IMG/VR virus record: IMGVR_UViG_2537561944_000032 | Origin: a virus | Taxonomy: Duplodnaviria; Heunggongvirae; Uroviricota; Caudoviricetes | Length of the DNA stretch: 39,436 bases | Strand: one strand, 5' to 3' | Shown: positions 1,073 to 30,579 of the stretch, in pieces | Layout: the number at the start of each line of letters is the position of its first letter | Numbering within the stretch: position 1 is the first letter of the stretch | Position numbers and translations under genes: made by a program | The notes under the pieces: generated by a model | Seen by the model: only the letters and a program-made list of their open reading frames with translations | Database searches by the model: none | What the model was told of the DNA's origin: nothing

Positions 1073-1541
1073 ATTTGTATTTTGTGCAATGGCGGTAGAG
1101 TGGCGATGGTGTGGCGATATGCAGAAACAATGGTAGTGCACGTGCTGTTTAAACTCTAAGGATGAAGCAGAATTCTTCTGCAGCTCCTCCGTATTTCGCA
1201 TAGTGAACCAGGACCTCTGTTAAACAAAAATTTTTCTGGGATTTTTTCACTCGACTTCATTTTTCCTCCTGCAATCCACCAACAGGTACCTGCGCTAATC
1301 TATCTTTTTAATCTGACAACATCTTGGGAAAAGGCAAATTCGTCAGATTTACTGTTTTTCTGCTGCCTCGAATGCCGATGTCTGAAGCACTGATAAGAGT
1401 TCTATCTCTTTGATATAGATCTTTTTTTTGATGAATTGCACGACATATTATCGTTATGACACCTTCTTGTTAAAGGTATTGTACTCCTCATCTCGATTTT
1501 ATGATGTGGGCTATGATTGGTTAGTAATAGAGTGTATCGGT

Positions 1542-1823
1542 ATGCGATGTGGTTTATTAATGGCAATCTGCCTTTGTTTAGTATCTTTTAGTGGATATGC
1601 AGCAACAGGAAAGTCTGATGCTCAGATCAAAAAAGAAATAATTAAAGAATCCATTGAATCTTATCCAGGCAATTGTGCGTGTCCTTATAATCATGCAAGG
1701 AATGGTAGTAGATGTGGTGGACGCAGTGCATATAGCCGTAATGGAGGGTATGACGTGGTATGTTATGAGGGTGATGTTACCGATGAAATGATCCGGCAAT
1801 GGAAGCAGGAGAATGCTGAGTAA
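1542..1823 (+). CDS. hypothetical small secreted cysteine-rich protein (signal peptide, about 93 aa mature precursor)
   Basis: ORF 1428..1823; likely start at internal Met (MRCGLLMAICLCLVSFSGYAATG...) giving a signal peptide; C-terminal region is Cys/Gly/Arg-rich; AT-rich context; start codon uncertain. Confidence 0.4.
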   Translation: MRCGLLMAICLCLVSFSGYAATGKSDAQIKKEIIKESIESYPGNCACPYNHARNGSRCGGRSAYSRNGGYDVVCYEGDVTDEMIRQWKQENAE

Positions 1824-2011: not shown

Positions 2012-2152
2012 TTACTGCTTACACTGTAAGAACGCCGCAAACTCCGCTCCCCAGAAGCTCATCCGTATTTCACACAGCGAACCGCGTAGCATCCAGATGA
2101 TGAGGATTACCGTCACGCAGAACGTGATGGCTGTAAGCGATTTTTGCGACAT
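2012..2152 (-). CDS. Hok/Gef-family type I toxin-like small membrane peptide (46 aa)
   Basis: Translation MSQKSLTAITFCVTVILIIWMLRGSLCEIRMSFWGAEFAAFLQCKQ: single TM segment followed by the SLCE(I/L)R and AAF motifs shared with Hok/HokA/Gef as I recall them; GGAG RBS 8 nt upstream of ATG; stable hairpin (cgggggagcaatcccccg) immediately after the stop. Below the 60-aa ORF-track cutoff, found by manual translation. Confidence 0.6.
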   Translation of the reverse strand: MSQKSLTAITFCVTVILIIWMLRGSLCEIRMSFWGAEFAAFLQCKQ

Positions 2153-2342: not shown

Positions 2343-2603
2343 TTAATTCTGAGGTAAAGGCAAACTCATCTGATTGTTTCCCCTGTGTGAAGCTGGCAGC
2401 TCATGCCACGGGATACCTTCCGAAGAGTGAACGCCGGAGGCGTGTTTTGATGTGAATTTATGGAAAGCTTCCAGTGTTGAGAAGCATACGCCGCATTCCA
2501 GGTTGTTACACTGGTAATACTTTTGCCGCACAGTGTTTGAATCGTTTTCCGGACGACTGGTGCGGATTCGGGCAGATGCGCCACAAAGCGGACAACGGAA
2601 CAT
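2343..2603 (-). CDS. ogr: Ogr/Delta-family zinc-finger late-gene transcription activator
   Basis: N-terminus MFRCPLCGASARIRTSR...YYQCNNLECGVCF has the C4 zinc-finger spacing of P2 Ogr (MFHCPLC...); sits downstream of D on the same strand as in P2. Confidence 0.8.
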   Translation of the reverse strand: MFRCPLCGASARIRTSRPENDSNTVRQKYYQCNNLECGVCFSTLEAFHKFTSKHASGVHSSEGIPWHELPASHRGNNQMSLPLPQN

Positions 2604-2889
2604 AGCGACCTCCCTTAACGTGGTGCTGCCGCTATTCTAAGTTGTAATAGCTCAGACTCCAACTGACAGTTTGCGCAGCCAGAATACAATCAAACCTAGC
2701 GGTACGCTTTGTGCGAAGAGCGGAAGTTCGCAACTCCAACAACTTTGATAACCTCCGCATAAATGGAAATCGGTTGCTTACATAAGTTTATTGGCTGAGC
2801 ATATCGGGAAGCAAGCGGGCAGTGCCATCTTATCTGTTACAATCCCGAAATGATTGTTCAGCCCGCTTTTTCTAACAGCATGTAAACAT

Positions 2890-4029
2890 TCAGCTGCAAA
2901 TTTCGTTGTTGCTGCATGTTATCTCTTCAAGTGCAGCGGCGTTATAATCAACGGAATGATCAACCTGTGATGTAGGTCTGCCAAAAAATTCAACCCCTGA
3001 CATAATCATGTTGCCGATATTCTCTCGCTGTTTATCACTGAGCCTGTCCCACCACTCAGGGGATGAATATGTATTTTCGGCCTTTGTGAAGAAAAAATAC
3101 AGAAGGGTATTGAACATCCTGTTAGCTGGGATCTTAATTAGTGTCCGTATAAAACGTCTGATAATTGTTGAAGTTCTCAGCCAACTGAACACTACATATC
3201 CCTTACCTCCGCAGGAAAAAGCATTGAAACATACTTGTTCCGCCGACACTGTAAGATCGCTCAAATCCTGAATTTTGGTCCCATCGAAATCCCTCTCCGG
3301 TGAAAGAATTGACGAAACTACAATTGGTAAAGGCTCTGCAAAAGTGAAGATAACACTTTCAATTTCTGAAAATTGCCTGCTAAGTAGGATGCGGTCGAGG
3401 CTAGTTTTAAGATTATTTAATTCAATTATTGCTGCATTTAAGCCACTTTGGTGCTGGTCGATTAATTTCTGAATATAATACTGTTCAACTTGTAGCTTTC
3501 CTTTATCGGCATTTTTAGCAAAATCAGAAGATAGCACTCCCCCTTCTTTGGCATAAATTTCTTTAGACAATGAACGAAACATTAAGGCAAAGCACTGCTC
3601 GTCCGTGCCTGTAAATTTTTCGTTCTCTAGGCATGAAAATAAGATTCTGTCATGAACTGCACAAAATCCTGTAAAAGTGGATGCCTGATTGATACCGATC
3701 TTCTCGGGAAGCCATTTTCCGTTGTTTCTCATCAGGCTTGCTAAGTTCATTATCACCCCCATGACGTGATTGCTGGAGTCGGCGATCGCCTTAAGGCTAC
3801 TGCTCTTAGATATCGTATGCGCCTGAACGATGCGTTTATCACAATCTTCGTGCATGGATGCTGGCGCATAACATGCCTTTCTCTGCGAGAGAGACTTTGA
3901 AAATTTCAGTGCCTCGGCTTTGGATACCGGAGTTTCACGATCTCGACCAAGATGGCACTTTTTATACTTAAGTCCTGAATTACACCAGCACTTATCATTT
4001 CTTCCTAATTTCACTTTATTGTTTCCCAC
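2890..4029 (-). CDS. hypothetical protein with N-terminal SEC-C metal-binding motif (379 aa), cargo gene in AT-rich island
   Basis: ORF begins ...GRNDKCWCNSGLKYKKCH (CxC-x8-CH SEC-C motif); remainder has no family I recognise; region is markedly AT-rich relative to flanking phage genes; inserted between D and ogr, which are adjacent in P2. Start codon uncertain (GTG at 4029 or downstream GTG). Confidence 0.6.
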   Translation of the reverse strand: MGNNKVKLGRNDKCWCNSGLKYKKCHLGRDRETPVSKAEALKFSKSLSQRKACYAPASMHEDCDKRIVQAHTISKSSSLKAIADSSNHVMGVIMNLASLMRNNGKWLPEKIGINQASTFTGFCAVHDRILFSCLENEKFTGTDEQCFALMFRSLSKEIYAKEGGVLSSDFAKNADKGKLQVEQYYIQKLIDQHQSGLNAAIIELNNLKTSLDRILLSRQFSEIESVIFTFAEPLPIVVSSILSPERDFDGTKIQDLSDLTVSAEQVCFNAFSCGGKGYVVFSWLRTSTIIRRFIRTLIKIPANRMFNTLLYFFFTKAENTYSSPEWWDRLSDKQRENIGNMIMSGVEFFGRPTSQVDHSVDYNAAALEEITCSNNEICS

Positions 4030-5279
4030 GAAATTAATGTTCTATAACAAAAACACTTATCGAAAATAGGTGTAATTTATCACTCCGGCAGCTAAAAGAT
4101 CATCTGCCACATGCACGATAATAAATCTTCCTTGCGTCATCATCTCCCTCTGTTCTTAAATCAGGTGTTGCCTGTGTGCGGAGGATTCGCGAAGTACAGT
4201 AGCCGAAATGCATGATCTTACCCATCAATGGTGAGCACGCGATAATAAGTGAGTCCCTAATTGACCACTCATGGCAATACAACTTCAACCAGCATTCATG
4301 ACCACTATCCGTGGATTAACTGTTACATAAGCAACACCTGCTCTAGGCACAAAGCGGGCTGCCAGATTGGGTCTGGCACTGTGCTGTGAGTGTGTCAGTT
4401 CTGGTTTGAGTCAATACATCTAATTTGCTCATTCTGTTTCTGCTATCCATTCCGGGATTTTTGCTTCAAGCTCAAGCTGTGTGGTAAAGCCGCTGTTATC
4501 AATGGTGTGCTCGGCTTTTGCAATAATCCAGTCCTGATTATCGATGTCACTTTTGAAGCCTGTCACCGTGCCATGCATTTCGGGATAGAGTTCTGCGCGT
4601 CCACGCGCCAGCGTGATGGAGAATGATGCGGCTCCGCGTTGTAGCTGCTGCCACTTTGCCGCCGCTGCACGTCTTGCTGCCTGCTCGTTCTGATAAGTCT
4701 TGCGTAACACAAACACGTTGCCTTCCGCACCTTCCATATAGTCACCTTCACGGCTGCTGCTTTTCTCCTTTTTCGGTTTGCGGCGTTTCACGCTGACTTT
4801 TTTCTTTTCCCGTAATTAAGATCAAGCCAGTAAGCACGTACCCCCGTATACGCTTCGCGGTCAGCAATGCGGAACTGATGGCGATCGCCACTGCTGCGCG
4901 TGATGGCGAACGATGGCAACGGCTGGCCCTGTGCGTTCACGCCACCGCCTGGCATGATGAATAACAGATTACTGCTTTTTACCGTAGTGATTGCGCCCAG
5001 CATTTCCGCCATGCGCGTAAGGAAGGACATGTCGCTTTCTTCGGTCTGGTCGGCGTGGTCGATTTCAATATCCATCAGCATTTCGCTGATTTGTGGTTTC
5101 AGACCGTACCGATGAGCGATGGCGGATACCACGCGCTCAACGGTCACATCATGCCAGGACACCTCACGTTTAACGTTAAATTCATCCCGAAAATCTGCGC
5201 TTCTGGCTGAAACAGTCAGCCTGTCCGGCGGTCCTTCGTGAGCGATTTCATCAACAATGTAAGTGCCTTTTTCTGTCAG

Positions 5280-5306
5280 TGAGGTAGCCTGAGTTTAACG
5301 GACACT
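5280..5306 (+). repeat. IS left terminal inverted repeat
   Basis: tgaggtagcctgagtttaacggacact; matches reverse complement of 6517-6543 at about 19/27 positions, including the terminal TGAGGT and the CGGACACT block. Confidence 0.7.
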
Positions 5307-5343
5307 CCTTCCTGAAATAGAATGGCATCAGAAGGAGCTAATA

Positions 5344-5646
5344 ATGAGCAGAAAAACCCAACGTTACTCTAAAGAGTTCAAAGCCGAAGCTGTCAGAACG
5401 GTTCTTGAAAATCAACTTTCGATCAGTGAAGGCGCTTCCCGATTATCTCTTCCTGAAGGCACTTTAGGACAATGGGTTACCGCCGCCAGAAAAGGGCTCG
5501 GTACTCCTGGTTCCCGCACGGTGGCTGAACTGGAATCTGAAATTCTGCAACTGCGTAAGGCGTTAAATGAAGCTCGCCTTGAGCGAGATATATTAAAAAA
5601 AGCAACAGCGTATTTTGCACAGGAGTCGCTGAAAAATACGCGTTAA
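5344..5646 (+). CDS. IS3-family transposase OrfA (HTH DNA-binding, 100 aa)
   Basis: MSRKTQRYSKEFKAEAVRTV...LERDILKKATAYFAQES; typical IS3 OrfA with leucine zipper; contains slippery A_AAA_AAA_G at 5595-5602. Confidence 0.85.
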   Translation: MSRKTQRYSKEFKAEAVRTVLENQLSISEGASRLSLPEGTLGQWVTAARKGLGTPGSRTVAELESEILQLRKALNEARLERDILKKATAYFAQESLKNTR

Positions 5647-6500
5647 TCGAACAATGGCGACAACAATTTCCCATTGAAGCGATGTGTCAGGTATTTGGTG
5701 TATCCAGGAGCGGTTATTACAACTGGGTACAGCATGAACCCTCAGACAGAAAACAAAGTGATGAGCGGCTAAAACTGGAGATTAAGGTGGCACATATCCG
5801 CACTCGCGAAACATATGGAACCCGGCGGCTCCAGACGGAGCTGGCAGAGAATGGCATCATCGTTGGTCGTGACCGACTGGCACGTCTTCGTAAGGAGCTA
5901 AGGCTACGCTGTAAGCAGAAACGCAAGTTCAGAGCGACTACGAACTCGAACCACAATCTGCCAGTTGCGCCAAATCTGCTGAACCAGACGTTCGCTCCTA
6001 CAGCACCAAATCAGGTCTGGGTGGCGGACCTGACGTATGTTGCCACACAGGAGGGATGGTTGTACCTCGCTGGCATCAAAGATGTTTATACGTGCGAAAT
6101 TGTCGGCTACGCCATGGGAGAGCGCATGACAAAAGAGCTGACAGGTAAAGCTCTGTTTATGGCGCTCAGGAGCCAGCGCCCACCTGCCGGGCTAATCCAC
6201 CACTCTGATCGAGGTTCACAGTACTGCGCATACGATTACCGGGTCATACAGGAGCAGTTTGGTCTGAAAACATCAATGTCGCGTAAAGGTAACTGTTACG
6301 ACAACGCTCCGATGGAAAGCTTCTGGGGAACGCTGAAAAATGAGAGCCTGAGCCACTATCGTTTTAATAACCGGGATGAAGCCATCTCAGTAATACGGGA
6401 ATACATTGAGATTTTCTACAATCGTCAGCGTCGTCACTCTCGTCTGGGGAATATCTCCCCGGCAGCCTTCAGGGAAAAATATCATCAGATGGCTGCTTAA
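5595..6500 (+). CDS. IS3-family transposase OrfB (DDE integrase domain), expressed as OrfAB fusion by -1 frameshift
   Basis: Frame -1 relative to orfA is open from 5583; reads KKSNSVFCTGVAEKYALIEQWRQQFPIEAMCQVFGVSRSGYY... with DDE catalytic core (HSDRGSQY...NAPMESFWGTLK); start coordinate given at the slip site. Confidence 0.8.
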   Translation, partial: KKSNSVFCTGVAEKYALIEQWRQQFPIEAMCQVFGVSRSGYYNWVQHEPSDRKQSDERLKLEIKVAHIRTRETYGTRRLQTELAENGIIVGRDRLARLRKELRLRCKQKRKFRATTNSNHNLPVAPNLLNQTFAPTAPNQVWVADLTYVATQEGWLYLAGIKDVYTCEIVGYAMGERMTKELTGKALFMALRSQRPPAGLIHHSDRGSQYCAYDYRVIQEQFGLKTSMSRKGNCYDNAPMESFWGTLKNESLSHYRFNNRDEAISVIREYIEIFYNRQRRHSRLGNISPAAFREKYHQMAA

Positions 6501-6516
6501 AAAAAGAACAAATGGT

Positions 6517-6543
6517 AGTGTCCGCTATTGCCAGTACACCTCA
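6517..6543 (+). repeat. IS right terminal inverted repeat
   Basis: agtgtccgctattgccagtacacctca; terminal CA; its last three bases create the TGA stop that truncates the gpD N-terminal fragment. Confidence 0.7.
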
Positions 6544-6952
6544 CAGCGGTTCTCCTTTCCAGCCAATGAGAACCGTCAGGCGCGCGCCCCGTGGCGGTAG
6601 CTGCAACTGACCATCCGCATCATCCAGCGTGATGGTGAGCAGGTCCGCTTCAAATCCCCGGTTGTCGGTCAGTGACAGGCTCATCAGGCGCTCTGCCACG
6701 CCGGACAGTGTTTCCCCCTCCGCGAGAATATCAAAATCCGGCATTTTCACGGGGTCTGTGCTCTGACTGAGCAATTGCATGGTGGTATCGGTCATCTGTT
6801 CCCTCCCTGTGCGGCATGGTCGCATGTGCGTGCATAGGGGGTTACTGCTTTTTGTTGTCGCCGTGGCGGGAGAACGGCGCAGGGGTGAGATTACGCGCGT
6901 GGTGGGTGATGATTGTTGCCGAATCATTTAACGGATACAAGGGGCTGAAGCT

Positions 6953-8137
6953 ATGAGTGAAACTCGTTTTCATGGTGCCCGTGTTACGGAAAGTACCGAC
7001 CTGGTAACAGCGATTAATGATGTTGATTCCAGTGTTATCGGTATCGTGGCAACGGCGGATGATGCGGACGCGGAGCTGTTCCCGCTGAACAAGCCCACAC
7101 TGCTGACCCGCGTCAATGACGTGCTGGGAAAATGCGGGACTACGGGGACGCTTTATCGTGCGCTTAAGGCTATTGCAGACCAGGTGAGCACAAAAGTGAT
7201 CGTCGTTCGCGTGGCTGAACACAAAGAAGAAGGCGGTAAGACGCAGGATCAACTGGTTATCGGTGGTTCTGAATCTGACGGCAGCTATACGGGGATGTAT
7301 GCGCTGCTTGTTGCAGAGCAGGATGAAAGCATCGGATACCGTCCGCGTATTCTGGCCGCGCCGGAGCTGGACACGGAGGCGGTGACAAAATCCCTGTGCG
7401 TGATTGCGGGTAAACTGCGCGCGTTTGTGTATGCCTCATGTCATGACTGTAACACGATGGCTGAGGCAATTACCTACCGCCAGAAATTCAACGAACGTGA
7501 GGTGATGCTCTTATGGCCGGACTTCATCGCCTACAACCCGAAAAGTGGCAAAAACGAAACGTTCCCCGCGCCTGCCTATGCGTGCGGCCTTCGTGCGTAC
7601 ATTGACCATGAGCAGGGCTGGCACAAATCGCTGTCCAACGTTCCTGTTAAAAATGTGCTGGGGATGTCCAGGCATGTTTTCTGGTCGTTGCAGGCCGAAG
7701 ACAGTGATGCCAACAGCCTCAACAACAAAGAAATCACGACCATTATTCGTCGCAACGGGTTCCGCTTCTGGGGCAACCGCACACCGGAAACGAACGCCTA
7801 CATCTTTGAGGTGTATACCCGAACCGCACAGGTGCTGGCTGATTCAATTGCGGAAGCGCAGTTTGAAACCATCGACAGTCCACTGACGCCTGCGAACGTG
7901 AAGGATGTTATCAGTGCCATCAGGGCAAAACTGGATTCGCTGGTTACTGCCGGGAAACTGATTGGCGCGGAGTGCTGGTATGACGTGGTGGATAACAGCA
8001 CCACGGATTTACGTCAGGGGCGTGTGCGTATTCGCTACAAATATACGCCCGTTCCGCCACTGGAAGACATGGAGCTTTACCAGACGTTTACTGATGAATA
8101 CTTTGAACCCGCATTTGCGGTGCTGGGAGGTGCCTGA
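6953..8137 (+). CDS. FI: contractile tail sheath protein (P2 gpFI-like)
   Basis: 394-aa ORF, size and sequence consistent with P2 FI (396 aa); followed directly by FII, E/E', T, U in P2 order. Confidence 0.85.
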   Translation: MSETRFHGARVTESTDLVTAINDVDSSVIGIVATADDADAELFPLNKPTLLTRVNDVLGKCGTTGTLYRALKAIADQVSTKVIVVRVAEHKEEGGKTQDQLVIGGSESDGSYTGMYALLVAEQDESIGYRPRILAAPELDTEAVTKSLCVIAGKLRAFVYASCHDCNTMAEAITYRQKFNEREVMLLWPDFIAYNPKSGKNETFPAPAYACGLRAYIDHEQGWHKSLSNVPVKNVLGMSRHVFWSLQAEDSDANSLNNKEITTIIRRNGFRFWGNRTPETNAYIFEVYTRTAQVLADSIAEAQFETIDSPLTPANVKDVISAIRAKLDSLVTAGKLIGAECWYDVVDNSTTDLRQGRVRIRYKYTPVPPLEDMELYQTFTDEYFEPAFAVLGGA

Positions 8138-8649
8138 TGGCTGTACCAAAACATCTTCGCTTTTTTACGCTGTTTGTGGATGGTGAAAACGAAGTGGGTA
8201 AGGTGACGTCCGTCACTCTGCCTAAGCTGACGCGCAAAACCGACAGCTACCGGGGTGGTGGCATGATGGGTGCGGTAAGTATTGATCTCGGTCTGGACGA
8301 CTCCGCGCTTGATGCGAGCTTTGTCATGGGGGGCGCAGTTCGTGAGCTGTTCCTTAAGTATGGCGGCACGATTGACGGCACGCTGCTGCGTTTTGCGGGT
8401 GAATATTACACCGATGCAGAAAGCGACCTGTATGAAGTCGAAATGCGCGGACGTGTGACGGAAATTGATATGGGGGAAGCCAAACAGGGCGAAGCCACAT
8501 CACACACTTACGCCATTAAAAACACCTACTACAAGCTGAGTGTTAACGATCGCCCGTTGTGGGAGATTGACCTGCTGAACTTCATTTACCGGAAGGACGG
8601 CAAGGACATTGTGCCCGATCGCATCCGTTCCGCGCTCGGGCTTGGCTGA
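8137..8649 (+). CDS. FII: tail tube protein (P2 gpFII-like)
   Basis: 170-aa ORF immediately after FI (ATGA overlap), size as P2 FII (172 aa). Confidence 0.85.
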   Translation: MAVPKHLRFFTLFVDGENEVGKVTSVTLPKLTRKTDSYRGGGMMGAVSIDLGLDDSALDASFVMGGAVRELFLKYGGTIDGTLLRFAGEYYTDAESDLYEVEMRGRVTEIDMGEAKQGEATSHTYAIKNTYYKLSVNDRPLWEIDLLNFIYRKDGKDIVPDRIRSALGLG

Positions 8650-8703
8650 TAAGTAATATGCAGGCGGCGCAGTGCGTCGCCTCTGACTGAAAGGAGTTTC
8701 CTG

Positions 8704-9069
8704 ATGAAAGAGACGAAAAACATCGATACCGAAAACACGGTAGTTGCTGACACTGTGAAAGAAACCAGTGAGCGTGGTGTAAAACTTACCCAACCAATTG
8801 AGCGAGGCGGCGAAAAAATCACGTATGTGGAGATCACCGGGGCTATTGAGCAGGCTGGATCTCTGCGAGATTTGTCGCTGTCTGATGTGCTGAATCTGAA
8901 AGCGGAATCCATGTTTACGCTGCTGTCACGCGTGACATCACCGCGACTGGATGAAGTGACGATCAAAAAAATGGCATCCCGTGACTTTATTCAGTTATGT
9001 GTGGTTGCCGTAAATTTTTTGAGCGGTGCGGACTCTGGCGGGAAGAACGAACAGGCGACGGAAGCCTGA
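8704..9069 (+). CDS. E: tail assembly chaperone gpE; gpE+E' produced by -1 programmed frameshift (8704..9021 joined to -1 frame ending 9233)
   Basis: Small acidic ORF between tube and tape-measure genes; slippery T_TTT_TTG at 9015-9021; -1 frame ORF 8997..9233 encodes conserved E' extension (FEHIEDFVADIAVIFNWSPAEIF). Confidence 0.8.
   Translation: MKETKNIDTENTVVADTVKETSERGVKLTQPIERGGEKITYVEITGAIEQAGSLRDLSLSDVLNLKAESMFTLLSRVTSPRLDEVTIKKMASRDFIQLCVVAVNFLSGADSGGKNEQATEA
9015..9021 (+). other. programmed -1 ribosomal frameshift slippery heptamer TTTTTTG (gpE to gpE+E')
   Basis: T6G in the 0-frame context aat ttt ttg; same heptamer and position as the P2 E/E' frameshift site. Confidence 0.75.
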
Positions 9070-9210
9070 TCACGGTTGTGTGCTTTGAGCACATAGAAGA
9101 CTTTGTGGCAGATATTGCCGTTATTTTTAACTGGTCGCCCGCCGAAATCTTCATGATGACGCCCGGCGAAGTGGTTAGCTGGCGTGAGCGGGCGGCACTT
9201 CGCAGCGGGA

Positions 9211-12027
9211 ATGCAGACAATGAAGACTCTTGATATCCGGGTCGCTTTCAGCGCCGTTGACAGGCTGACCCGGCCTGCCGAAAACGCCCGCCGCCTGATG
9301 GGGCAGTTTGGTGACTCCATCCAGCGAACGCAGGGGGCGATTAAAAATCTCGAGCGTCAGGCTCGTTCATTTGAGCGCGCCCGCGACGCTGTCAGTAAAG
9401 CGGATGCGGGTATCGTGAAAGCACGACGCCAGCTTAACGCCCTTAATCAGTTACAACGCACGGGTACAGTGCTCAGCGAAAAACAACAAAAGCTGATGCA
9501 GCAGTTAAGCACCCGGCTTGAACGCCTGAATGAATCGCGCACACGGGAAATTCAGAAAATGCGGGAGCTTGGCGGAGAGCTGAAACGCCACGGCATTTCC
9601 CTGACAGGCAGCGATAACACCATCCAGCAGGCCATCAGACGCACCGAACAGTACAACAACCAGCTTGAACGCGAACGGCAGGCGCTTGCGCGTGTAACGC
9701 GGGCGCGTAAGTGGTATTCGCGCGCGCAGGAAACCGCGGGAAAACTGAAAACAGGTGGTGCGCTGGCAATTGGTGCGGCAGCGGCGGGCGGCTATGCTGC
9801 CGGGCGTTTTTTGCAGCCCGCGATCGGGTTCGGCAAAGAGATGTCCCGCGTTCAGGCGCTGACGCGAATCGACCAGAACAGCCCGCAGTTTAAGGCGCTG
9901 CGTGAGCAGGCGTTAAAACTTGGCTCTGAAACGCAGTTCACCGCAGGCGATGCCGCCAGTGGGCAGGCATTTCTTGCAATGGCAGGCTTCACACCGCAGG
10001 CCATTCAGGCTGCGCTTCCCGGAGTGCTGAGCATGGCAACGGCTGGCGGTATGGATCTCGGCGAGACGGCGGATATTGGCTCAAATATCCTGACGCAGTT
10101 CGGCCTTTCTGCTGACCAGATGGACCGGGTCGGTGACACACTCACCGCAGCGTTTACCCGTACCAACACTGACCTTCGCGCACTGGGCGAAACCATGAAA
10201 TATGCAGGTCCGGTGGCGGGTAAGCTGGGAATATCGCTGGAGCAGGCCGCAGCGATGGCTGGTGTGCTGGCGAATATGGGCATCAGAGGGAGTGATGCCG
10301 GGACGGCAATGCGTGCCAGCCTGGCTCGTCTGGCATCACCGCCAAAGGCGGCGGCAGAAGCTCTGAAAGAGCTGGGCGTGTCCGTCTCGGATGCCGGGGG
10401 TAAAATGCGCCCGATGGAGGATGTGCTGGCCGACCTTTATAAAGCCACCCGCAAATACGGGGAAGTTGACCGGGTATCGTTCTTTAAGGACATTGCCGGA
10501 GAAGAGGCTTTCACATCGTTTATGGCGCTCGTTGATGCAGTGGGTGACGGTTCCTTACCCAAACTGAGAAAAGAACTTGAAGGCGCGCGCGGTGAGGCTG
10601 AACGCACAGCAAAGGTTATGGCCAACAACCTTGACGGCGATCTGAAATCACTCGGCAGTGCATGGGAAGGGTTGCGCATCCGCATTGCAGATCTGATTGA
10701 CGGTCCGCTGCGTTCTGTCACGCAGTGGCTCACGCGGGTGGTATCAAGGGTGACGGCGCTGGCGCAGGCCCATCCGGCACTGACGCGCCAGCTACTGATA
10801 GCAGGCGGTGCGTTGCTGGCAATGACTGCAACGGTTGGCTCGTTGTCGCTGGCTATTGGTGTGCTTGCTGGTCCGCTGGCAAAACTGCGTCTTGGTTTTT
10901 CTCTCCTGACCGGATCAATGAATGCTGTCAGGGTCCTGCCAGCACTATGGGGAATGGTGACGGGTTCCGTTTCTTTACTGGGAGGCGCTATCGGGGCGCT
11001 GTTCAGTCCGGTTGGTCTTATCGTGGCTGCGCTTGCCGGAGCTGCCGTCCTTATCTGGAAATACTGGGATCCCATCAGGGCATTTTTTGCCGGGGTGTTC
11101 AGCGGGATTATGGAAAGGCTGAACCCGTTGCGTGAAACCTTTGAACGGTTTGGCCCTGTTTTTGACGCAATCGGAAGCGGGATCAGCCAGGTGTTTAACT
11201 GGTTTAAATCGCTGCTGTCACCGATGGAGTCCAGCAAGGAAACGTTGGATAAATGTACCAGTGCTGGCGAGATATTCGGTAACGTTCTTGGCGGTGCGTT
11301 ACAACTTGTTCTGACACCTGCAAAAATGCTACTGGATACGCTGGCGTGGATACTTGAAAAACTTGGCGTCCTTCCGGATGAAGCGGAAAGGGCGCGCAAG
11401 AAAATCGAAGACGCACAGCGTGCGGCCATTCTTCAGGATAAGGTTGCCTTACTTCAGGGGGACCTGGCGAAAATCAATCCGCCGAAGCCTGTGGAAAATG
11501 GCAATGGCACCGGAGGTGATAAACCCAAAGACAACAAACCGCTCACAGACAGCAATACCGGGACGCTACGCAGACTCAGCAAAATTGCTGATAACACAGG
11601 TAAGCTGGTTGATGAGACGAAAAAACGCATTGGCCCCGGCGATATTGTCTTTAAGAACCTGCCCCGCGCACTTGCTGTTCGTGGGGAGTGGCAGGAGCGG
11701 AAGATTGCGCAGGTCAGTAAGCCTGCCCCCGCAATTAATATCACACCCGTAGTCCCGGCTCCGCTGCCTCCGGCGCTGGTCCCTGTTGTTGCGGCCAGCT
11801 CCCGCCCGGTGGCGGAGGCCATACGATCGCCAGTGGCATCAGTTCCTGCAGCTTCCCGTAATCGGGAGCCTGCTGTCTCCAGATTTGGCGGTGAAATTCA
11901 TGTTCATCTGCATAACGTTGTTACGCAGAATCCCCGCGAACTGGCGAAACTGGTCGGTGAAATGGTCAGGGCAGAAATGGAACGGCGCGCCCGTGCCGGG
12001 CGTGGCAGTTTTTACGATAAAGATTGA
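9211..12027 (+). CDS. T: tail tape measure protein (P2 gpT-like)
   Basis: About 940-aa protein with extended coiled-coil N-terminal half and Gly/Ala-rich hydrophobic segments; position between E' and U. Start ambiguous (ATG 9211 or 9220; ORF opens at 9184). Confidence 0.85.
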   Translation: MQTMKTLDIRVAFSAVDRLTRPAENARRLMGQFGDSIQRTQGAIKNLERQARSFERARDAVSKADAGIVKARRQLNALNQLQRTGTVLSEKQQKLMQQLSTRLERLNESRTREIQKMRELGGELKRHGISLTGSDNTIQQAIRRTEQYNNQLERERQALARVTRARKWYSRAQETAGKLKTGGALAIGAAAAGGYAAGRFLQPAIGFGKEMSRVQALTRIDQNSPQFKALREQALKLGSETQFTAGDAASGQAFLAMAGFTPQAIQAALPGVLSMATAGGMDLGETADIGSNILTQFGLSADQMDRVGDTLTAAFTRTNTDLRALGETMKYAGPVAGKLGISLEQAAAMAGVLANMGIRGSDAGTAMRASLARLASPPKAAAEALKELGVSVSDAGGKMRPMEDVLADLYKATRKYGEVDRVSFFKDIAGEEAFTSFMALVDAVGDGSLPKLRKELEGARGEAERTAKVMANNLDGDLKSLGSAWEGLRIRIADLIDGPLRSVTQWLTRVVSRVTALAQAHPALTRQLLIAGGALLAMTATVGSLSLAIGVLAGPLAKLRLGFSLLTGSMNAVRVLPALWGMVTGSVSLLGGAIGALFSPVGLIVAALAGAAVLIWKYWDPIRAFFAGVFSGIMERLNPLRETFERFGPVFDAIGSGISQVFNWFKSLLSPMESSKETLDKCTSAGEIFGNVLGGALQLVLTPAKMLLDTLAWILEKLGVLPDEAERARKKIEDAQRAAILQDKVALLQGDLAKINPPKPVENGNGTGGDKPKDNKPLTDSNTGTLRRLSKIADNTGKLVDETKKRIGPGDIVFKNLPRALAVRGEWQERKIAQVSKPAPAINITPVVPAPLPPALVPVVAASSRPVAEAIRSPVASVPAASRNREPAVSRFGGEIHVHLHNVVTQNPRELAKLVGEMVRAEMERRARAGRGSFYDKD

Positions 12028-12033
12028 GGAGTC

Positions 12034-12528
12034 ATGGCCATGATGATGATCTATGGCATGTTTGTTTTTGAGCTGCGCACGCTGCCGCATCAGCAGTTAC
12101 AGCAAAATAAAAGCTGGCGGCATGTGAAAAATGAACGCGTTAACCGTTCAGCAAGCTGGCAGTATATCGGTGCAGGTGATGATCGCATCGTTCTTTCTGG
12201 TGTGCTTTATCCTGAAATTACAGGTGGCGAAGTGTCGCTGTCTCTGCTGACCACGCAGGCGTATACAGGACGGCCCTGGCCTCTGATTGATGGCGTCGGG
12301 CAGATTTACGGCATGTATGTCCTGACCGAAACGAATACGACCCGCTCCGAGTTTGATCGCTACGGTAAGTCGAAAAAGATAGAATTTTCACTGACTCTTG
12401 AACGCTGTGATGAGGATTTGCGGGAGCGCCTGCAATCCTCATCGTTCAGCGATATGTTGTCCGGCTTCAAAGATAAGGTGACATCATCCCTTAATAGCGC
12501 GACCAGCTCAGTTAAGGGGCTGCTCTGA
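12034..12528 (+). CDS. U: tail protein gpU-like
   Basis: 164-aa ORF (MAMMMIYGMFVFELRTLPHQ...) resembling P2 gpU (159 aa); directly after tape measure. Confidence 0.8.
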   Translation: MAMMMIYGMFVFELRTLPHQQLQQNKSWRHVKNERVNRSASWQYIGAGDDRIVLSGVLYPEITGGEVSLSLLTTQAYTGRPWPLIDGVGQIYGMYVLTETNTTRSEFDRYGKSKKIEFSLTLERCDEDLRERLQSSSFSDMLSGFKDKVTSSLNSATSSVKGLL

Positions 12529-12684
12529 TTTAACGTATGTCGCCAATTTCCTGATGAAGGTGACTGGCGACTTGCTGTTGTATGTCCTTCTCAGAAAATT
12601 GTTTTTGAATAACAAACAACAGGATTTTATAATCTCTTAACCTTATAATATGTGTGGTCTGAAATAATAATTAAGGAGATTATC

Positions 12685-13257
12685 GTGCTGTCTTACTTAA
12701 TGGCAATTCACTTTGCTTTATTTGGGGACTCTACTAATTTAAAAAACTTCTGGAAATATGAAGTAATTCGGCGGAAACGTATGGATATCTGGAGGCTTTT
12801 AAGAGAGAAAAAACAGCGTAACCGGAATTTCCTTTTCTGGTGGCGGTTGGCTAACGAAATGTATATTAATGGTAATAAATTACATAAGAAAGCAGCCAAA
12901 AAGTTAAACAGTAAAATAATTAACAAATTTGGTTGTGAAATTGGATTGGGCGCAAATATTGGAAAAGGGTTAACAATTCCCCATCATGCTGGAATTGTTG
13001 TTCATTTTGCTGTTGATGCTGGTGAAAATCTGGTGTTACGACAGAATACTACCATTGGACAGATAGATGGTGACATGCCTGGTTCAAGAGTAAAAATTGG
13101 TAGTAACGTTGATATCGGAGCTAATTGTTGCATCATTGGATTATCACGTAAAATTGGGGATAATGTAAAAATAGGTGCAATGTCTTTTATAAATAAAGAT
13201 ATACCATCGAACTGCACATATATAACTAAAAAGAGCGGTGTTGTATTGTATAAATAG
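12685..13257 (+). CDS. hexapeptide-repeat (left-handed beta-helix) acetyltransferase, CysE/LacA/WcaB-like; cargo gene
   Basis: Repeated [LIV]-G-x-x-x-x-I hexapeptide units (IGKGLTIPHHAGIVV...VKIGSNVDIGANCCIIG...KIGDNVKIGAMSF); GTG start at 12685 with AAGGAG RBS (ATG at 12700 alternative); region 12570-13260 is strongly AT-rich; followed by hairpin terminator. Confidence 0.75.
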   Translation: MLSYLMAIHFALFGDSTNLKNFWKYEVIRRKRMDIWRLLREKKQRNRNFLFWWRLANEMYINGNKLHKKAAKKLNSKIINKFGCEIGLGANIGKGLTIPHHAGIVVHFAVDAGENLVLRQNTTIGQIDGDMPGSRVKIGSNVDIGANCCIIGLSRKIGDNVKIGAMSFINKDIPSNCTYITKKSGVVLYK

Positions 13258-13265
13258 AGTACATA

Positions 13266-13300
13266 AAGCCATCTATATTTCAATCGATGGCTTTTTCTCT
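13266..13300 (+). terminator. rho-independent terminator after acetyltransferase gene
   Basis: gccatc...gatggc stem followed by TTTTTCTCTTTATT. Confidence 0.55.
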
Positions 13301-13879
13301 TTATTGTGGGGCGACTGGCCACTCAACATCCGCTGCTACCGCTGTATTAACACGATTCAACAATACCCGGTATGTCTTCCATGCAGCCAGTAACGATGCC
13401 TCTTCCTCCGTTGCAATATCCAAATCTACGGCATCCTGAAGTGGCGCAATATGCTCGCTGGCTACCTGCATCAGGCTGTTTTTTGTTTCTTCCGCCTCCC
13501 TTATCCGAAACAGTTTTTCTGCTTCTGCATCTTTCACCCAGGATGTGCCGTTCCACTTCTGATACTCTCCATACGGCGACAACCAGGTAACATTTTCCGG
13601 TAATGGACCGAGTTCAGAAATAAATAACGAGTCCCCTGATGCCACGTCATAAACCGTTTTACCCCGATGGTCTTCAACGAGATGCCACGATGCCTCATCA
13701 CTGTTGAAAACGGCCACGAAGCCAGCCGGAATATCTGGCGGGGCAATATCGGTACTGTTTGCAGGCAGACCTGTATGAGGTGGAATGTATGCATCACCTT
13801 CACCAATAAACTCATTGGTTCCGGTCAGTAGATTATAAATTTTTATGGTCCGTGAGTGTTCACTCATTCTGAATGTCAT
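13301..13879 (-). CDS. G: tail fiber assembly protein (P2 gpG-like)
   Basis: 192-aa ORF immediately downstream of the tail fiber gene on the same strand; typical size and position of gpG/Tfa. Confidence 0.75.
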
Positions 13880-16011
13880 TATGCAAGCCTCACAATATAG
13901 TTAAATGCGATGTTTTTTACGGTGTTTTCTTCGTTACCCGTAGCGTTAACGGTGATGGTGTGTCCGTGGGGACCAATAATGACAGAATGGGCATGAGCAC
14001 CAATGCCGATAGTGTGGTTATGGGCACCGATATATACATTGTGAGCATGCTCGCCTGCGCTCGACGTGGTACCAGTACCTAACGCAGCGTTATAACCGGC
14101 TGATACACCATTCCCCGCGCCAGTGTGACCAACAGGTATATTGTGTGAATGATTTCCAGCGCTATTCGTAGTTTTTGTGCCGTAATCAAATGAACTGGTC
14201 GTTTTAGTACCGTAATCAAACGACGATGTGGTTTTCGTCCCCAAATCCGTACTGGATGCGCTGGCGCTGTGGGTGTGCGATTTAATGCCGTCCTGTTCCT
14301 GAGACAATACGGCACGACCACTGCCGGGCTTGCCCTTAATCGTCCAGCCACGCATATCAGGAATAACGCCTGACGGATAAGCGACTGCAAGTTTCGGGTA
14401 TGCAGATTTGTCAAAAGTCTGCCCCTGCATCAGGGCATAACCAGACGGAACGGTATCTGATGGCCACGGAATCGGTGCACCGACTGGATAAAACTCTTCA
14501 GGAGGATGAGCCGAGGTGTAAAGCTGCGCCCACGGCGACCAGTTTGCGTCGGGCGTATCCCGTCGTGAACGAATAAATGCCGGAGCATGAGCACCGCTTA
14601 TACCACTCCAGCCGATGAGTAATTCGCCTTCGCCAACGGCTGTCATCCCTTTCAGGTGAATGATATTTCCATACGTTGTTGGATATCCGTTGTTATACGC
14701 CTCGTATAACTCCAGACCTGTGGCCCCCTGCATATTATCTGTCAGGGCGGTCAGCCGACCTTTTGAAGCCAGATTAACTGACGATACTGCTGTCCCATCT
14801 GACGGTAACGCCCCGATCTCTGATGCTGTTGGCTTATTCCTGGAGTTATAGTCCCTTCGCCAGCCAGGAGCATAAGCATCACCATGATTAATATAAGTAA
14901 ATTGAGCATTAGGGATGCCTTCACCGCTGGATGTACTCGGTGTGGTAATGCGTATGGTCATTGCGCCGCGGGTGCCAATAACTTCCACAACAGCACCTGC
15001 AAGACAAATACTTCCGCAACCTGTATCTGTAATGACCTTATTATTTGCATAAGCCCATGAGCCTTTGCACATCCAGTAAGGATGGTTAAATGCCCCCTGA
15101 CTCTCTAGCCAAAAAATCAACTGCGCAGTTGTCCATGCTTCACTATCTCCACCAATATTCAGCTCTGCACTATATGCACGGCAGGCACCGATATTTTTCG
15201 TAAAGGTGTCTTTATCAGAGATATCCTCACCATTCTTAGCTTTCTGCAGACGTTTTTCAGCATTGTCATAGGCAGCTTTTACTGCATTTGATGTTGCCGC
15301 CAGCGTTTCAGATGTACTGTTGGTTGCACTACTAAGCTGGACAAGGCCTTTTCGCGCTGTTGTGGCATCCTGCGCTGTATATTTTCCGTTAGCAAGATCA
15401 TACGCGACCTTAACCGCTTTCGGCGTTGCAGCCAGCGTTTCAGAATCGCTGTTAGTGGCGCTACTGAGTTGAACAAAGCCTTTTGCGGTCAGCGAGGCAT
15501 CCGGGTGACATCGTGACTGTTCATGCTCTTTCAGTTCGTTATCCACGTAATCCACTGTGGCCATCACCATGGTGTTATCCACGGTAAGCGCCACAGTGGC
15601 AGTGCTGGATACGGTCAGAATGGTGCGAAATGTTTGTGCACGTCCGGACCCTTCGGCAACGGCTGGCTTGTAACTTTCGGCAGTATTGCCCACCGCGATT
15701 AAATCGCCGTGCTCATCAAACACACCAATTTCCCGGATCCAGAATCCGCCCGTTTCTGGAGGAATAACCAGCTCCGCAATAATGCGGTTCTGATGTGTTG
15801 CGTCCAGGATGACGCGATTAACAGTGTGTCGCCACACCTCATGCACCAGACGGGTCTGCTTACTGTCTGGTGTGGGCAACGCGCCGCCACCGTCGCCCAC
15901 GGCCATATGAGTCAGGCGGACAGGCTTACCATCTGGCGCGGCTGCCTGAGCTAATTTTTTGGCACCTGTATCGGTGATAACGGTTTTAAATTTTCGTGTT
16001 GTGGTACTCAT
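13879..16011 (-). CDS. H: tail fiber protein (P2 gpH-like) with divergent His-rich C-terminal receptor-binding tip
   Basis: N-terminal two-thirds match P2 gpH as I recall it, including the duplicated [23 protein letters not shown] segment; C-terminus carries HxH repeats ([33 protein letters not shown]). Confidence 0.9.
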
Positions 16012-16013
16012 GC

Positions 16014-16544
16014 TTAATCGTCCGGATAAATGGTAATAACTTCACCGTCATGAGTTGCCGCCGCTGCAAAAATATCCCCCGGAATTTCCTGAATGATATT
16101 CAGCCCTGTCATGTGGCGGCTGACCGGACGGGCATCAGCAATCAACCGCTCCATTTCCAGATACATTTCCTCCGTCACGCCACTGTCCAGTGTGCCGACT
16201 TCAACGGTAAATGTTCCCGGTTCTCCGCCGAACTCCCACCACTCAGACACGCGAATGAGGTATCCCAGCGGCTCAATGGCCCTGCGCAGTGCGCTGATGG
16301 TCCCTTTGTGTCGGTGTATCAGCCATGCATCACGAATCACCTGTCGTTTTGTCTCTTCCGGCCAGTTGCGATCCCAGCGGTCAACGGAAAATGCCCAGGC
16401 GAGATAAGGCAGCAGGTGCACCGGGCAGGTGTCCGGCGACCACAGCGTGTTGAGGTCTACCGGGATGTCTGTAATGCGCGTTCCGACAGCTTCGGCACAA
16501 CGCATGAAACTGCTGGCTGATGGTGGTAACAGTGAATTACTCAT
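16014..16544 (-). CDS. I: baseplate assembly protein gpI-like
   Basis: Position between J and H; about 176 aa from Met at 16544 (MSNSLLPP...), P2 gpI size. Confidence 0.8.
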
Positions 16545-17433
16545 TGCGCCCACCTTCGCTGATGGTGAACGACTCACAGCGCGCCGCCTGTATGTCGCTG
16601 ATGGCCATATTCTGTGTGGGTTCGATTATCTCCACGCGTTGCACACCGTGCACATGCAGTGCGGCAGCAATGGCGGACAACGCCACGTCCTGACCGATAA
16701 GCCCCTGCTCAGCCAGCCACTTCCTGAACGACGATTCAGCCGCCGCCAGAATAGGTTCGGATTCCGGGCCGGGGTAAAAGTACAGTTTTGCATTCAGCCG
16801 CCATGTCACGATTCTGGCGCTCTGTACCGTCAGGCGGTCGGCCACCGGGCGGGTATCCTCTGCATTCAGAACGGCGCGAACGGTATTAAGCAACGCCTCC
16901 GTTGCTGTGCCGTCGCCTTCAGTGGACAGGATGGAAACCGTCACATTTGCCGGAGACGGACTGATAGCCCGCGCATCACGCACCAGACCGCTGGCGCTGC
17001 GGGCAAAATACTCGTATGCACCTGACGGGCCAGCAACACTCAGGCCATCGTACGCCCGCTGCGCCCGCAGTCTCAGCGAGGTGTCACTTTCCATCACTGC
17101 GTCGGTGGTATCCGTTGCCGGAGTGATGGTCAGGCGCTTTGTGTTCATATTGCCCGCGAGGTTGTCCAGGTCTGTCCCGGCGCTGTGGCTTAACATGCAG
17201 GCGCGTGCCCCCTCATTGACCCGCTGGCGTAACAGCATTTCACGAAACGCTGTTGTCTGGGCGATAACGTTCAGGGGTTCCGATTCCAGCTCCAGCGCGG
17301 CGGAGACGGCTTCACGCTGTTCGGCAGGATAGGACGCAATCATCATGGCCTTTGTGTCAGCCAGAATTGCCTCAAAGTCAGGCTCCGCGATGATGGCGGG
17401 TTCCGGTAACTGGGAAAGGTCAACGGCAGGCAT
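16537..17433 (-). CDS. J: baseplate protein gpJ-like
   Basis: 298-aa ORF between W and I; size matches P2 gpJ (302 aa). Confidence 0.85.
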   Translation of the reverse strand: MPAVDLSQLPEPAIIAEPDFEAILADTKAMMIASYPAEQREAVSAALELESEPLNVIAQTTAFREMLLRQRVNEGARACMLSHSAGTDLDNLAGNMNTKRLTITPATDTTDAVMESDTSLRLRAQRAYDGLSVAGPSGAYEYFARSASGLVRDARAISPSPANVTVSILSTEGDGTATEALLNTVRAVLNAEDTRPVADRLTVQSARIVTWRLNAKLYFYPGPESEPILAAAESSFRKWLAEQGLIGQDVALSAIAAALHVHGVQRVEIIEPTQNMAISDIQAARCESFTISEGGRNE

Positions 17434-17436
17434 GAT

Positions 17437-17787
17437 TTACTCCCTCAGCGTGATGGTTAATTCAACATTCTGCATGGTCTGCATGACAGTGCCCGACAGC
17501 GTCACCCCGGCGCGGCCTCCTGCCTTCCAGACAACGTCGATGGCGTCCAGGGCAATGCGGGGTTCCCATCGTGTCAGCGCAATCACGGCAGCACTCATGC
17601 ATTGCAGACGAGTGGTGTTATTCATGGGTTCGTCAATTAAATCGGGCACAAGGCTGCCATATTCCCGTCGCATAACCCGGCTTGCCAGCGGGGTGATCAG
17701 GATGTCCCTGACTGACTGTTTCAGATGCTCCATATCGTTCAGGTTTCCCGTTCCGTCCGGGTTCATTCCTGTGTAGCGGGTTGTCAC
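17437..17787 (-). CDS. W: baseplate wedge protein gpW-like (gp25/lysozyme-like fold family)
   Basis: 116-aa ORF between V and J; P2 gpW is 115 aa. Confidence 0.85.
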   Translation of the reverse strand: MTTRYTGMNPDGTGNLNDMEHLKQSVRDILITPLASRVMRREYGSLVPDLIDEPMNNTTRLQCMSAAVIALTRWEPRIALDAIDVVWKAGGRAGVTLSGTVMQTMQNVELTITLRE

Positions 17788-18365
17788 TGCGGGCCTCCTG
17801 TCGAATCGCTGCCACCTTTAACGCCACCATGTTTATGCGTATGCACTGTGATGCCGTTTGAGGTGAAATTGCCGCCGCTGTGCGTGATATTGCCGCTCAT
17901 CTTTCCCCCTTTTGTGACGTCAAGCGTCGCCGTTCTCAGAAGGTCTGTGCATTCCACGACGGGCGTGTCCAGTGTCACACTGACGGATGCCTGCAGGGTG
18001 GCCGTTTTCATGCCGCTGGCGCTCAGTGCGCCTGCGTCCGCGTCGTAGCGGAACACCGCGCCATCCGGCGCGCTGACCACGATTTCTTTCAGGCTTTTGC
18101 CGGGGGCCGGATTGGCATCACTCCACAGGCTGCCAATTATCATGGCGGTTTCCGGGTTGCCGCCAATGCAGGCAATTACCACCTGTTCGCCGGGTGATGG
18201 CGGCAGCCACACATTGAAGGCTCCCGCGCGCGTGGTGTTCCAGCGCAACCAGCCTGTTTCCAGTTCGCCGCTGCGAACGCGCACGCACCAGGACTTCTCA
18301 TCAACTTCAGAGATGATCCCGGTGCGGATGATGTTGCTCAGCAGTCGCATGAGTTCTGCGCTCAC
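17784..18365 (-). CDS. V: baseplate central spike protein gpV-like
   Basis: 193-aa ORF upstream of W with Gly-rich C-terminus; P2 gene order S-V-W-J-I-H-G. Confidence 0.8.
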   Translation of the reverse strand: MSAELMRLLSNIIRTGIISEVDEKSWCVRVRSGELETGWLRWNTTRAGAFNVWLPPSPGEQVVIACIGGNPETAMIIGSLWSDANPAPGKSLKEIVVSAPDGAVFRYDADAGALSASGMKTATLQASVSVTLDTPVVECTDLLRTATLDVTKGGKMSGNITHSGGNFTSNGITVHTHKHGGVKGGSDSTGGPQ

Positions 18366-19006: not shown

Positions 19007-19457
19007 CCCACGTCACATCCTGGAATACATGCGACCAGTCGCCTTCGGAAGATGGCAGACGGGGTTTTGGCTCCTGCAGGTGTTCTGCCTGCGGTGCCCC
19101 CTGACTGCTGCGCGTGATGCGAACGCGTTCCCGCAGAGGGAGCGTAAACAGGAGATCGGCGCTGTCATCGTCATTGATAACGGCGGAGAATTTGATGTCC
19201 TGATTACGCTCCGGATTAAGCAACAATTGCGGCTGATTTTCGGATAACCACGCCAGTAGCGGCAGCGTGAGGTCGTCCAGCTCCCCGGCGTAATCCATGA
19301 CAAACATCACCATCTGATAGCGGTAAACAAACGAGGGCGTTTCTCCGGTCGTTTCAATGTTGCCGCTCTCCACGAAAATGGTGAATTTTTCCGGGTTGGC
19401 CTGACACCAGCGACACCCATGAATCATGCCCTTCCGGAGGCTGTTTGTCTTAAGCAT
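18990..19457 (-). CDS. R: tail completion protein gpR-like
   Basis: 155 aa from Met at 19457 (MLKTNSLRKG...), AGGAG RBS; resembles P2 gpR N-terminus (MLKPDSLRR...) and LAWL.ENQP motif. Confidence 0.8.
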   Translation of the reverse strand: MLKTNSLRKGMIHGCRWCQANPEKFTIFVESGNIETTGETPSFVYRYQMVMFVMDYAGELDDLTLPLLAWLSENQPQLLLNPERNQDIKFSAVINDDDSADLLFTLPLRERVRITRSSQGAPQAEHLQEPKPRLPSSEGDWSHVFQDVTWGESDG

Positions 19458-29570: not shown

Positions 29571-29609
29571 GCAGGGCGATGCGCGATTATCGCCCTGGTT
29601 TGAGGGGGA

Positions 29610-30575: not shown

Positions 30576-30579
30576 TGGT

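Follow-up and report, generated by a model that had tools for sequence, protein, structure and literature searches.

The 39,436-nt stretch of IMG/VR record IMGVR_UViG_2537561944_000032 (hereafter the window), which matches the chromosome of Escherichia coli O26:H11 strain 11368 (NC_013361) at 99.98% identity, holds a P2-like prophage in which an AT-rich insert separates tail gene D from the late-gene activator gene ogr. To judge from its sequence, the 379-residue protein encoded by the sole open reading frame (ORF) of this insert is almost certainly a member of the family of Rugutis, an anti-phage protein of Lactococcus. Because of this homology, together with the mobility of the gene, its solitary occurrence, the purifying selection acting on it, the defense-rich neighborhoods of its relatives and the variability of the slot that it occupies, we favor reading the insert as mobile defense cargo (a moron), consisting of a solitary Rugutis-family anti-phage gene in the D-ogr slot of an E. 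coli O26:H11 P2-like prophage, and we give this reading a probability of roughly 70%. By analogy with Rugutis, an anti-phage function of the E. coli copy itself appears probable.

The literature on phage defense and on the SecA-type metal-binding motif SEC-C leads to Rugutis (PMC13064643; PMC11381338), a single-gene anti-phage system of 359 amino acids (aa) encoded by gene pUCCL633_059 of the lactococcal plasmid pUCCL633A. Its SEC-C motif is reported to lie at the N-terminus, and its confidently predicted fold to have no PDB counterpart (Grafakou et al. 2024 NAR, PMC11381338). When a plasmid collection was searched by tblastn with the 379-residue protein, five Lactococcus plasmids matched at E about 1e-27, among them pUCCL633A (E 4e-27), whose only SEC-C coding sequence, at exactly 359 aa, was thereby identified as Rugutis. 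BLASTP aligned residues 5-347 of the 379 with residues 3-336 of Rugutis at 26% identity (E 2e-37), and a profile of 42 E. coli-type members of the family scored Rugutis at 182 bits. A core-only profile (aa 36-379), from which the SEC-C columns had been removed, still scored 151.7 bits (E 2e-43, computed for a database of 177,635 sequences), so the homology is full-length and no artifact of the motif. The two proteins are alike in their N-terminal SEC-C motif, in a core that belongs to no Pfam family, in a confident AlphaFold2 model that finds no PDB match, in being encoded by a stand-alone single gene on a mobile element, and in keeping the same invariant C/C/H...C-x2-H-D...E...R set. They differ in that the last ~30 residues remain unaligned, in that the SEC-C motif ends C-C in Rugutis and C-H in the E. 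coli protein, whose H88 is not conserved, and in that the latter comes from a Gram-negative host and a P2-like prophage whereas Rugutis comes from a dairy plasmid.

Rugutis protects against skunaviruses and phage c2, acts after DNA injection, and protects cultures at low but not at high multiplicity of infection, which gives an abortive-infection-like lysis profile (PMC11381338). In all c2 mutants that escape it, the mutation lies in the part of the large-terminase gene that encodes the ATPase domain (Grafakou et al. 2025 PNAS, PMC12184496), and expression of the c2 terminase lowers viability only when Rugutis is present (PMC12184496). The defense activity, the abortive-infection-like phenotype and the terminase link have so far been demonstrated for the lactococcal protein alone.

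The family is widely distributed. A word-indexed search recovered 296 clusters, and an exhaustive profile search of 50%-identity representatives returned 1,482 sequences at E ≤ 1e-30 and 7,523 at E ≤ 1e-3, the latter count taking in SEC-C-only matches. At 85-88% identity, close relatives are present in Salmonella, Citrobacter, Pantoea, Enterobacter and Klebsiella, and more distant ones in Gammaproteobacteria, Alphaproteobacteria, Chloroflexota, Desulfobacterota and Bacillota. The ORF is under purifying selection, as Ka/Ks (the ratio of nonsynonymous to synonymous substitution rates) is 0.13-0.26 against five enterobacterial homologues. Scanning genome contigs yielded at least about a dozen genuine full-length loci among abundant SEC-C-only matches, and relatives are present on 23 viral contigs of IMG/VR, frequently close to the contig end or beside an integrase gene. 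At every locus examined the gene was solitary, with neighbors that were always different and no conserved partner. In Salmonella it and PARIS (AAA_15 + DUF4435) share a P4-like satellite with integrase, AlpA and DUF927 primase; in a Citrobacter island HEPN-RES, HEPN_Swt1, DUF6932 and DUF4238 genes surround it; and in Klebsiella variicola the element that carries it resembles a phage-plasmid and has gp32, RecA and Rep3. A relative lacking SEC-C adjoins PifC/PifA on pKPN5, one on a Rhizobium plasmid adjoins an ABC-three-component (ABC-3C) system, and one on contig OR846759 of Listeria phage LM 4-11-1 (L017:3300-5986) directly follows a Gabija-like GajA (E 6e-92) and a second ORF. That contig is an unannotated 23.8-kb 'phage' record flagged UNVERIFIED_ORG and could represent a fragment of a plasmid or island rather than a phage. 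When 142 neighboring ORFs from 20 family loci (of 25 selected) were pooled and scanned with PADLOC and Pfam, there were matches to bSEFIR/TIR, type I restriction-modification, a CBASS cyclase with a 2TM effector, PD-T7-1, AbiEii, AbiJ, DruM and reverse transcriptases; as the scan had no matched background, we take it as supporting evidence only.

These neighborhoods are rich in defense systems and not in virulence genes, no cognate antitoxin-like partner is conserved at any locus examined, and the sole family member tested, Rugutis, confers phage resistance. It is thus unlikely that the gene is cargo of another kind, such as a toxin or addiction module stabilizing the element, a factor in host physiology or virulence, or a counter-defense protein working for the phage. 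Not every prophage moron serves defense, this prophage itself carries Hok/Gef, ParM and acetyltransferase genes, and the protein may be toxic by analogy with Rugutis, constructs of which were unstable in some strains (PMC11381338); nevertheless, the non-defensive reading has no positive support.

The conserved part of the protein is a core of ~310 residues that matches no Pfam, PHROG or PADLOC family. Ten residues of this core (Table 1) are invariant in all 13 aligned divergent members as well as in the 42 close ones. Four of the 13, from Klebsiella pKPN5, Priestia, Bradyrhizobium and Staphylococcus xylosus plasmids, lack SEC-C; because distant members can do without it, we regard the core as the conserved unit of the family and the SEC-C knuckle as an accessory addition. 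AlphaFold2, run on the 42-sequence alignment, gave a model with a predicted local distance difference test score (pLDDT) of 88.5 and a predicted template modeling score (pTM) of 0.87, composed of the knuckle, a small alpha/beta region that contains the invariant Cys/His/Asp residues, a long helical hairpin (143-217), and a C-terminal beta-sheet with helices; it had no significant PDB match, as published for Rugutis (PMC11381338). The invariant Cys/His cluster is, on conservation, a candidate second metal site beside a putative catalytic or sensing center, and our confidence in any specific effector chemistry is low.

One such chemistry would be that of a degenerate, zinc-stabilized HNH/His-Me-finger nuclease in the C-x9-C...AH-T-I-S...G-F-C-x2-H-D segment, which would degrade DNA on activation. 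Tests for an HNH-like fold were negative and no HNH profile matched; what brings the idea up is the resemblance to the HNH consensus of a Cys pair followed by 'AH[ST][IV]' and then 'C-x2-H-D...F', read by eye from the alignment, and the predicted beta-strand-to-helix arrangement around C123-H126, which would be compatible with it. We consider this nuclease reading very unlikely. Kinship with DUF4238 (Rst_DUF4238), a defense protein of P2 hotspots whose N-terminal motif resembles H-x-[IV]-P, was rejected: comparing the family alignment with the DUF4238 protein of Citrobacter, hhalign gave a probability of 0.2%, and Pfam gave no match.

An earlier note, made from the sequence of the window alone, had described an AT-rich island of ~1.8 kb between D and ogr that encodes a single 379-residue protein on the late-gene strand. 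This description is confirmed, with the flanks where the note had placed them: ogr (2343-2603) and the stop codon of D at 4429 stand 1,825 bp apart, and the one ORF between them is intact, with a GTG start whose context, V-E/G-N-D/N-K-V-K, is retained in Pantoea and other homologues. The strand assignment holds for the strand of D and ogr and fails for the FI-U tail genes, which lie on the opposite strand in this P2 lineage. We defined the borders of the insert by blastn against the empty junction of strain M00057, where 42 bp separate D and ogr, and nine bases of that junction match both insert flanks, leaving an imperfect 9-bp direct repeat around the insert. The insert has 42.3% G+C and the ORF 41.3%; the window as a whole has 51.7% and the remaining prophage 52.6%, and just 4.9% of windows of the same size are equally low. 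The gene travels with upstream DNA, as a segment of about 1.6 kb (window 4335 to 2746) that includes ~300 bp 5′ of the ORF shows 83% DNA identity to the Salmonella P4-like satellite copy. Within the insert, Rfam gave no match and a terminator scan found no clear terminator.

Among 5,426 complete E. coli genomes, 1,214 match the D/ogr flanks and 80 of these carry the whole insert; the best match is ≥99% identical in 70 of 1,217 matching records, and the listed ones among the 70 include several O26:H11 strains. Of 40 matching records sampled at even spacing, about 24 showed direct D-ogr adjacency, three the 379-residue SEC-C protein gene, seven other cargo and six partial matches. The alternative cargo includes DUF2971 (on the opposite strand), DUF3800, a ComF-like phosphoribosyltransferase with a hypothetical gene, and other hypotheticals, with E. 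coli strains A1, O104:H4 RM8376 and NCTC9966 among the carriers. The DUF2971 cargo matches the PADLOC candidate system PDC-S31 and belongs to the same Pfam family as Aristaios, a lactococcal anti-phage protein (PMC11381338), and the ComF-like cargo has a weak PsyrT match. A stretch of ~22 bp on the ogr side (TAATAGCTCAGACTCCAACTGAC) is common to occupied junctions and absent from the empty one, which suggests cassette exchange or deletion between short repeats.

The insert thus combines a position between conserved phage genes with absence from most sampled prophages, deviant G+C and replacement by alternative cargo, as is typical of moron or hotspot cargo, and we flag the D-ogr junction as an extra variable cargo slot of P2-like prophages beyond the three usually listed. 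Those three moron regions are TO, orf30 and Z/fun (PMC6823313), and a further defense hotspot has been described adjacent to cos (Rousset et al. 2022, PMC9122126); in the literature that we searched, D-ogr is among neither the former regions nor the latter hotspot. Like the P2 slots and P2/P4 hotspots (TO with tin/old, Z/fun, orf30), it is a small AT-rich locus between conserved phage genes with turnover of cargo, and a close homologue of its gene occurs beside PARIS in a P4-like satellite. Unlike the known P2 moron regions, it is empty in most sampled prophages, and unlike the classical TO slot with tin/old, the TO region of the prophage in the window holds a ParM partition system.

That prevailing emptiness, in sampled prophages with near-identical D and ogr, also speaks against a normal structural or regulatory gene of the P2 lineage, for example a tail accessory protein or a late-control factor. 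The gene is co-directional with D and ogr, and read-through from the D transcript is possible. However, other prophages hold unrelated genes at the same place, some on the opposite strand, homologues also occur where phage genes are lacking, on plasmids, satellites and chromosomal islands, and PHROGs offers no family match beyond the SEC-C motif; we give this explanation next to no chance. The earlier view of the insert as a foreign single-gene moron, often of anti-phage function, is borne out by the mostly empty junction, the G+C contrast, the homologues in other mobile contexts and the full-length homology to a validated defense protein. The same note had allowed for a conserved phage gene at this position or a relative of a housekeeping protein, and neither applies: the junction survey speaks against the first, and as to the second, the protein has only the 20-residue SEC-C motif in common with YecA.

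The N-terminal SEC-C motif noticed earlier (CWCNSGLKYKKCH, residues 14-26) is confirmed by Pfam (PF02810, E 2e-8, 34.4 bits against a cut-off of 20.4), and C14, C16, C25 and H26, the predicted metal ligands, are invariant in 42 relatives. The remark that no further domain could be recognized likewise stands: in Pfam, SEC-C is the sole domain of the query, the 42 relatives and Rugutis, and matches in PADLOC v2, NCBIfam and PHROGs (E2/E1-E2, PDC-S12 and YecA-like models) are confined to the 20-residue motif, so they are uninformative for the core. Against PDB chains, the family profile matches only metal-binding peptides of SecA and YchJ (SecA metal-binding domain 1ozb/1sx0). Metal-binding domains of the SecA type take up zinc or iron and interact with SecB and ribosomes (bioRxiv 10.1101/613315). 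Those of SecA, YecA and YchJ share with the 379-residue protein the same ~20-residue knuckle, G-R-N-x-x-C-x-C-x-S-G-x-K-[YF]-K-x-C-H, and nothing else: outside it, the protein shows no relationship with SecA, UPF0149 (YecA) or YchJ. The YecA model PRK10396 gave 17.9 bits against a cut-off of 149, over profile positions 197-220 of 221 only, and Pfam found no UPF0149, so membership of the YecA family was rejected; the RefSeq name 'YecA family protein' is wrong, as it is based on the SEC-C motif alone. A YecA-type or SecA-associated housekeeping or chaperone protein, to which the shared motif might point, is scarcely credible for an AT-rich, mobile gene present in so few complete E. coli genomes, with its motif N-terminal where SecA and YecA have it C-terminal, and with the genuine yecA (UPF0149 family protein YecA; NC_013361.1 2667387-2668052) lying directly beyond the integrase gene and outside the prophage in strain 11368.

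Returning to the defense-cargo reading, we propose that the protein would be produced in the lysogen, its expression probably driven by the co-transferred ~300 bp upstream, and that it would stay inert until infection by another phage. Its cue would be a late phage function, and homology to Rugutis makes DNA packaging or the large terminase the likeliest; the terminase in particular is a possible trigger of the E. coli protein, at odds clearly below even. Activation may then arrest the growth of the infected cell or kill it, so that no progeny is released, as analogy with Rugutis suggests. Conservation points to the core as the active part, with a putative C53/C63/C123/H126 metal site next to an H71/D127/E135/R152 center, and the SEC-C zinc knuckle may be an optional docking module. 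In a more specific version, which we hold to be doubtful, the core would be a new metal-dependent effector or sensor fold that monitors phage DNA packaging through the large terminase and shuts the cell down, with C53/C63/C123/H126 ligating the metal and H71/D127/E135/R152 as the active center; it would tell foreign terminases from the helper gpP and dock through SEC-C on ribosomes or SecB, and D-ogr would then be a fourth, previously unlisted defense hotspot of P2-like phages. Terminase sensing is known from the Avs/AVAST STAND NTPases and from lactococcal Rhea, to which the protein would be alike, in its late-protein cue and abortive outcome, only if the trigger of Rugutis carries over. Unlike them, it has no STAND NTPase, TnsE-like or recognizable effector domain, and it resembles them in neither sequence nor fold.

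Several points weigh against the defense-cargo reading or this working of it. At only 26% identity, trigger and outcome may differ from those of Rugutis. Escape-mutant c2 terminase is still toxic in the presence of Rugutis (PMC12184496), so direct terminase sensing is not settled even there. The prophage encodes a large terminase of its own, which a terminase-triggered suicide gene would need to spare. The gene has no match in the defense catalogue, as PADLOC v2 (2023) contains no model for the family; a promoter scan of the insert found no convincing sigma-70 promoter 5′ of the ORF on the minus strand; and the effector chemistry is wholly inferred, the tests for an HNH-like fold having been negative. 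We also list here homologues, for example in Aeromonas, that stand alone between housekeeping operons, although this is neutral in itself.

The Rugutis family was named and validated in 2024, in Lactococcus only, and our literature searches returned no paper on the E. coli 379-residue protein or on SEC-C proteins in P2 prophages. What we add is modest, namely the wide distribution of the family with its SEC-C-less branch, the list of invariant residues, and D-ogr as an extra cargo slot. Defensive cargo in a P2 prophage will not surprise a specialist; the value lies in a tractable E. coli model for a mechanistically opaque defense, since an intact family member under purifying selection in a P2-like prophage of enterohemorrhagic E. 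coli (EHEC) O26:H11 opens the way to E. coli genetics with P2, P4, lambda and the T-series phages, and the invariant residues provide a short list for mutagenesis. The label 'YecA family protein' on hundreds of database entries is misleading and should be corrected. Prophage cargo of this sort also bears on phage therapy against EHEC, since it can influence which phages replicate.

Table 1. Features of the insert, its anchor genes and other loci in the window (positions are those of the window).
Feature	Position	Strand	Remarks
ORF of the insert, 379 aa, GTG start	2890-4029	-	RefSeq WP_001317900 'YecA family protein'; intact, sole ORF of insert
SEC-C (SecA-type) metal-binding knuckle, residues 10-27	3949-4002	-	C14-x-C16-x8-C25-H26; Pfam PF02810
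Conserved family core, residues 36-347, ~310 residues	2989-3924	-	predicted fold without PDB match
Invariant cluster C53, C63, H71, F122, C123, H126, D127, F131, E135, R152	3574-3873	-	alignment
Upstream non-coding region co-traveling with the gene	4030-4335	-	presumed promoter or leader
Inserted cargo segment, 1,774 bp, 42.3% G+C	2645-4418		blastn against empty D-ogr junction of strain M00057
Imperfect 9-bp direct repeat, ogr-side copy, TCTAAGTTG	2636-2644		flank alignment to empty junction
Imperfect 9-bp direct repeat, D-side copy, TCTAATTTG	4419-4427		flank alignment to empty junction
ogr, late-gene activator, downstream anchor gene	2343-2603	-	ORF list, RefSeq annotation
Tail gene D, 3′ part, upstream anchor gene	4429-5279	-	stop codon at 4429; ORF list, RefSeq annotation
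Insertion sequence, IS3 family, 1,264 bp	5280-6543		orfA 5344-5646, orfB 5682-6500; 3-bp target duplication
Tail gene D, 5′ part	6544-6795	-	beyond the insertion sequence
Hok/Gef type I toxin gene	2012-2152	-	between ogr and prophage end
Hexapeptide/serine O-acetyltransferase	12685-13257	+	Z/fun slot; 37% G+C, lowest in window
Rfam IS009 small-RNA family match	13338-13536	-	between acetyltransferase and tail-fiber assembly gene; 192 bits, gathering score 117
DUF6645 protein, 625 aa	19481-21358	-	between lysC and tail-completion genes
ParM, partition protein and Ea22-like gene	about 29600-31540		TO region
Membrane protein and DUF2511	37402-38429	+	beside int

The window starts in pgsA and runs through tRNA-Gly, tRNA-Cys and tRNA-Leu into the prophage, which extends from its ogr end to the integrase gene. 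Gene D is interrupted twice, by a 1,264-bp insertion sequence and by a one-base deletion at 4805. Because the insertion sequence splits this tail gene, the prophage of the window is defective for tail assembly, and the element is missing from the otherwise near-identical prophage of strain 11368. There are four single-base deletions relative to that strain, at 4805, 26886, 28088 and 36456, which represent either real prophage decay or homopolymer sequencing errors; the one at 4805, the sole one whose context was inspected, shifts the frame of D and sits in a T-rich run. Another breaks up the large-terminase gene gpP, which is left as ORFs 26325-26960 and 26951-28075; this is worth noting given the link of the Rugutis family to the large terminase.

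P2 has its tail genes in the order of the FETUD operon, and the layout of the window differs: FI-FII-E-E'-T-U (6953-12530, plus strand) runs opposite to D/ogr (4429-6795, minus strand) and to V-W-J-I-H-G (13300-19400, minus strand). Since strain M00057 has the identical layout, the reversed FI-U strand is a feature of the lineage and not an assembly error, and D, the cargo and ogr form a separate co-directional block that starts at the divergent D/FI intergenic region. The prophage has four or five AT-rich cargo islets (Table 1), the D-ogr insert among them, and neither the acetyltransferase nor the DUF6645 protein has a PADLOC match. A further AT-rich stretch (981-1980, about 41% G+C) lies between tRNA-Leu and hok and contains an ORF (1428-1823, plus strand) for a small Cys-rich protein with the motif GNCACPYNHARNGSRCGGRSAYSRNGG, labeled in RefSeq only as hypothetical. 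In all the related P2-like prophages inspected, the Hok/Gef gene occupies the same place, with ogr on one side and the end of the prophage on the other.

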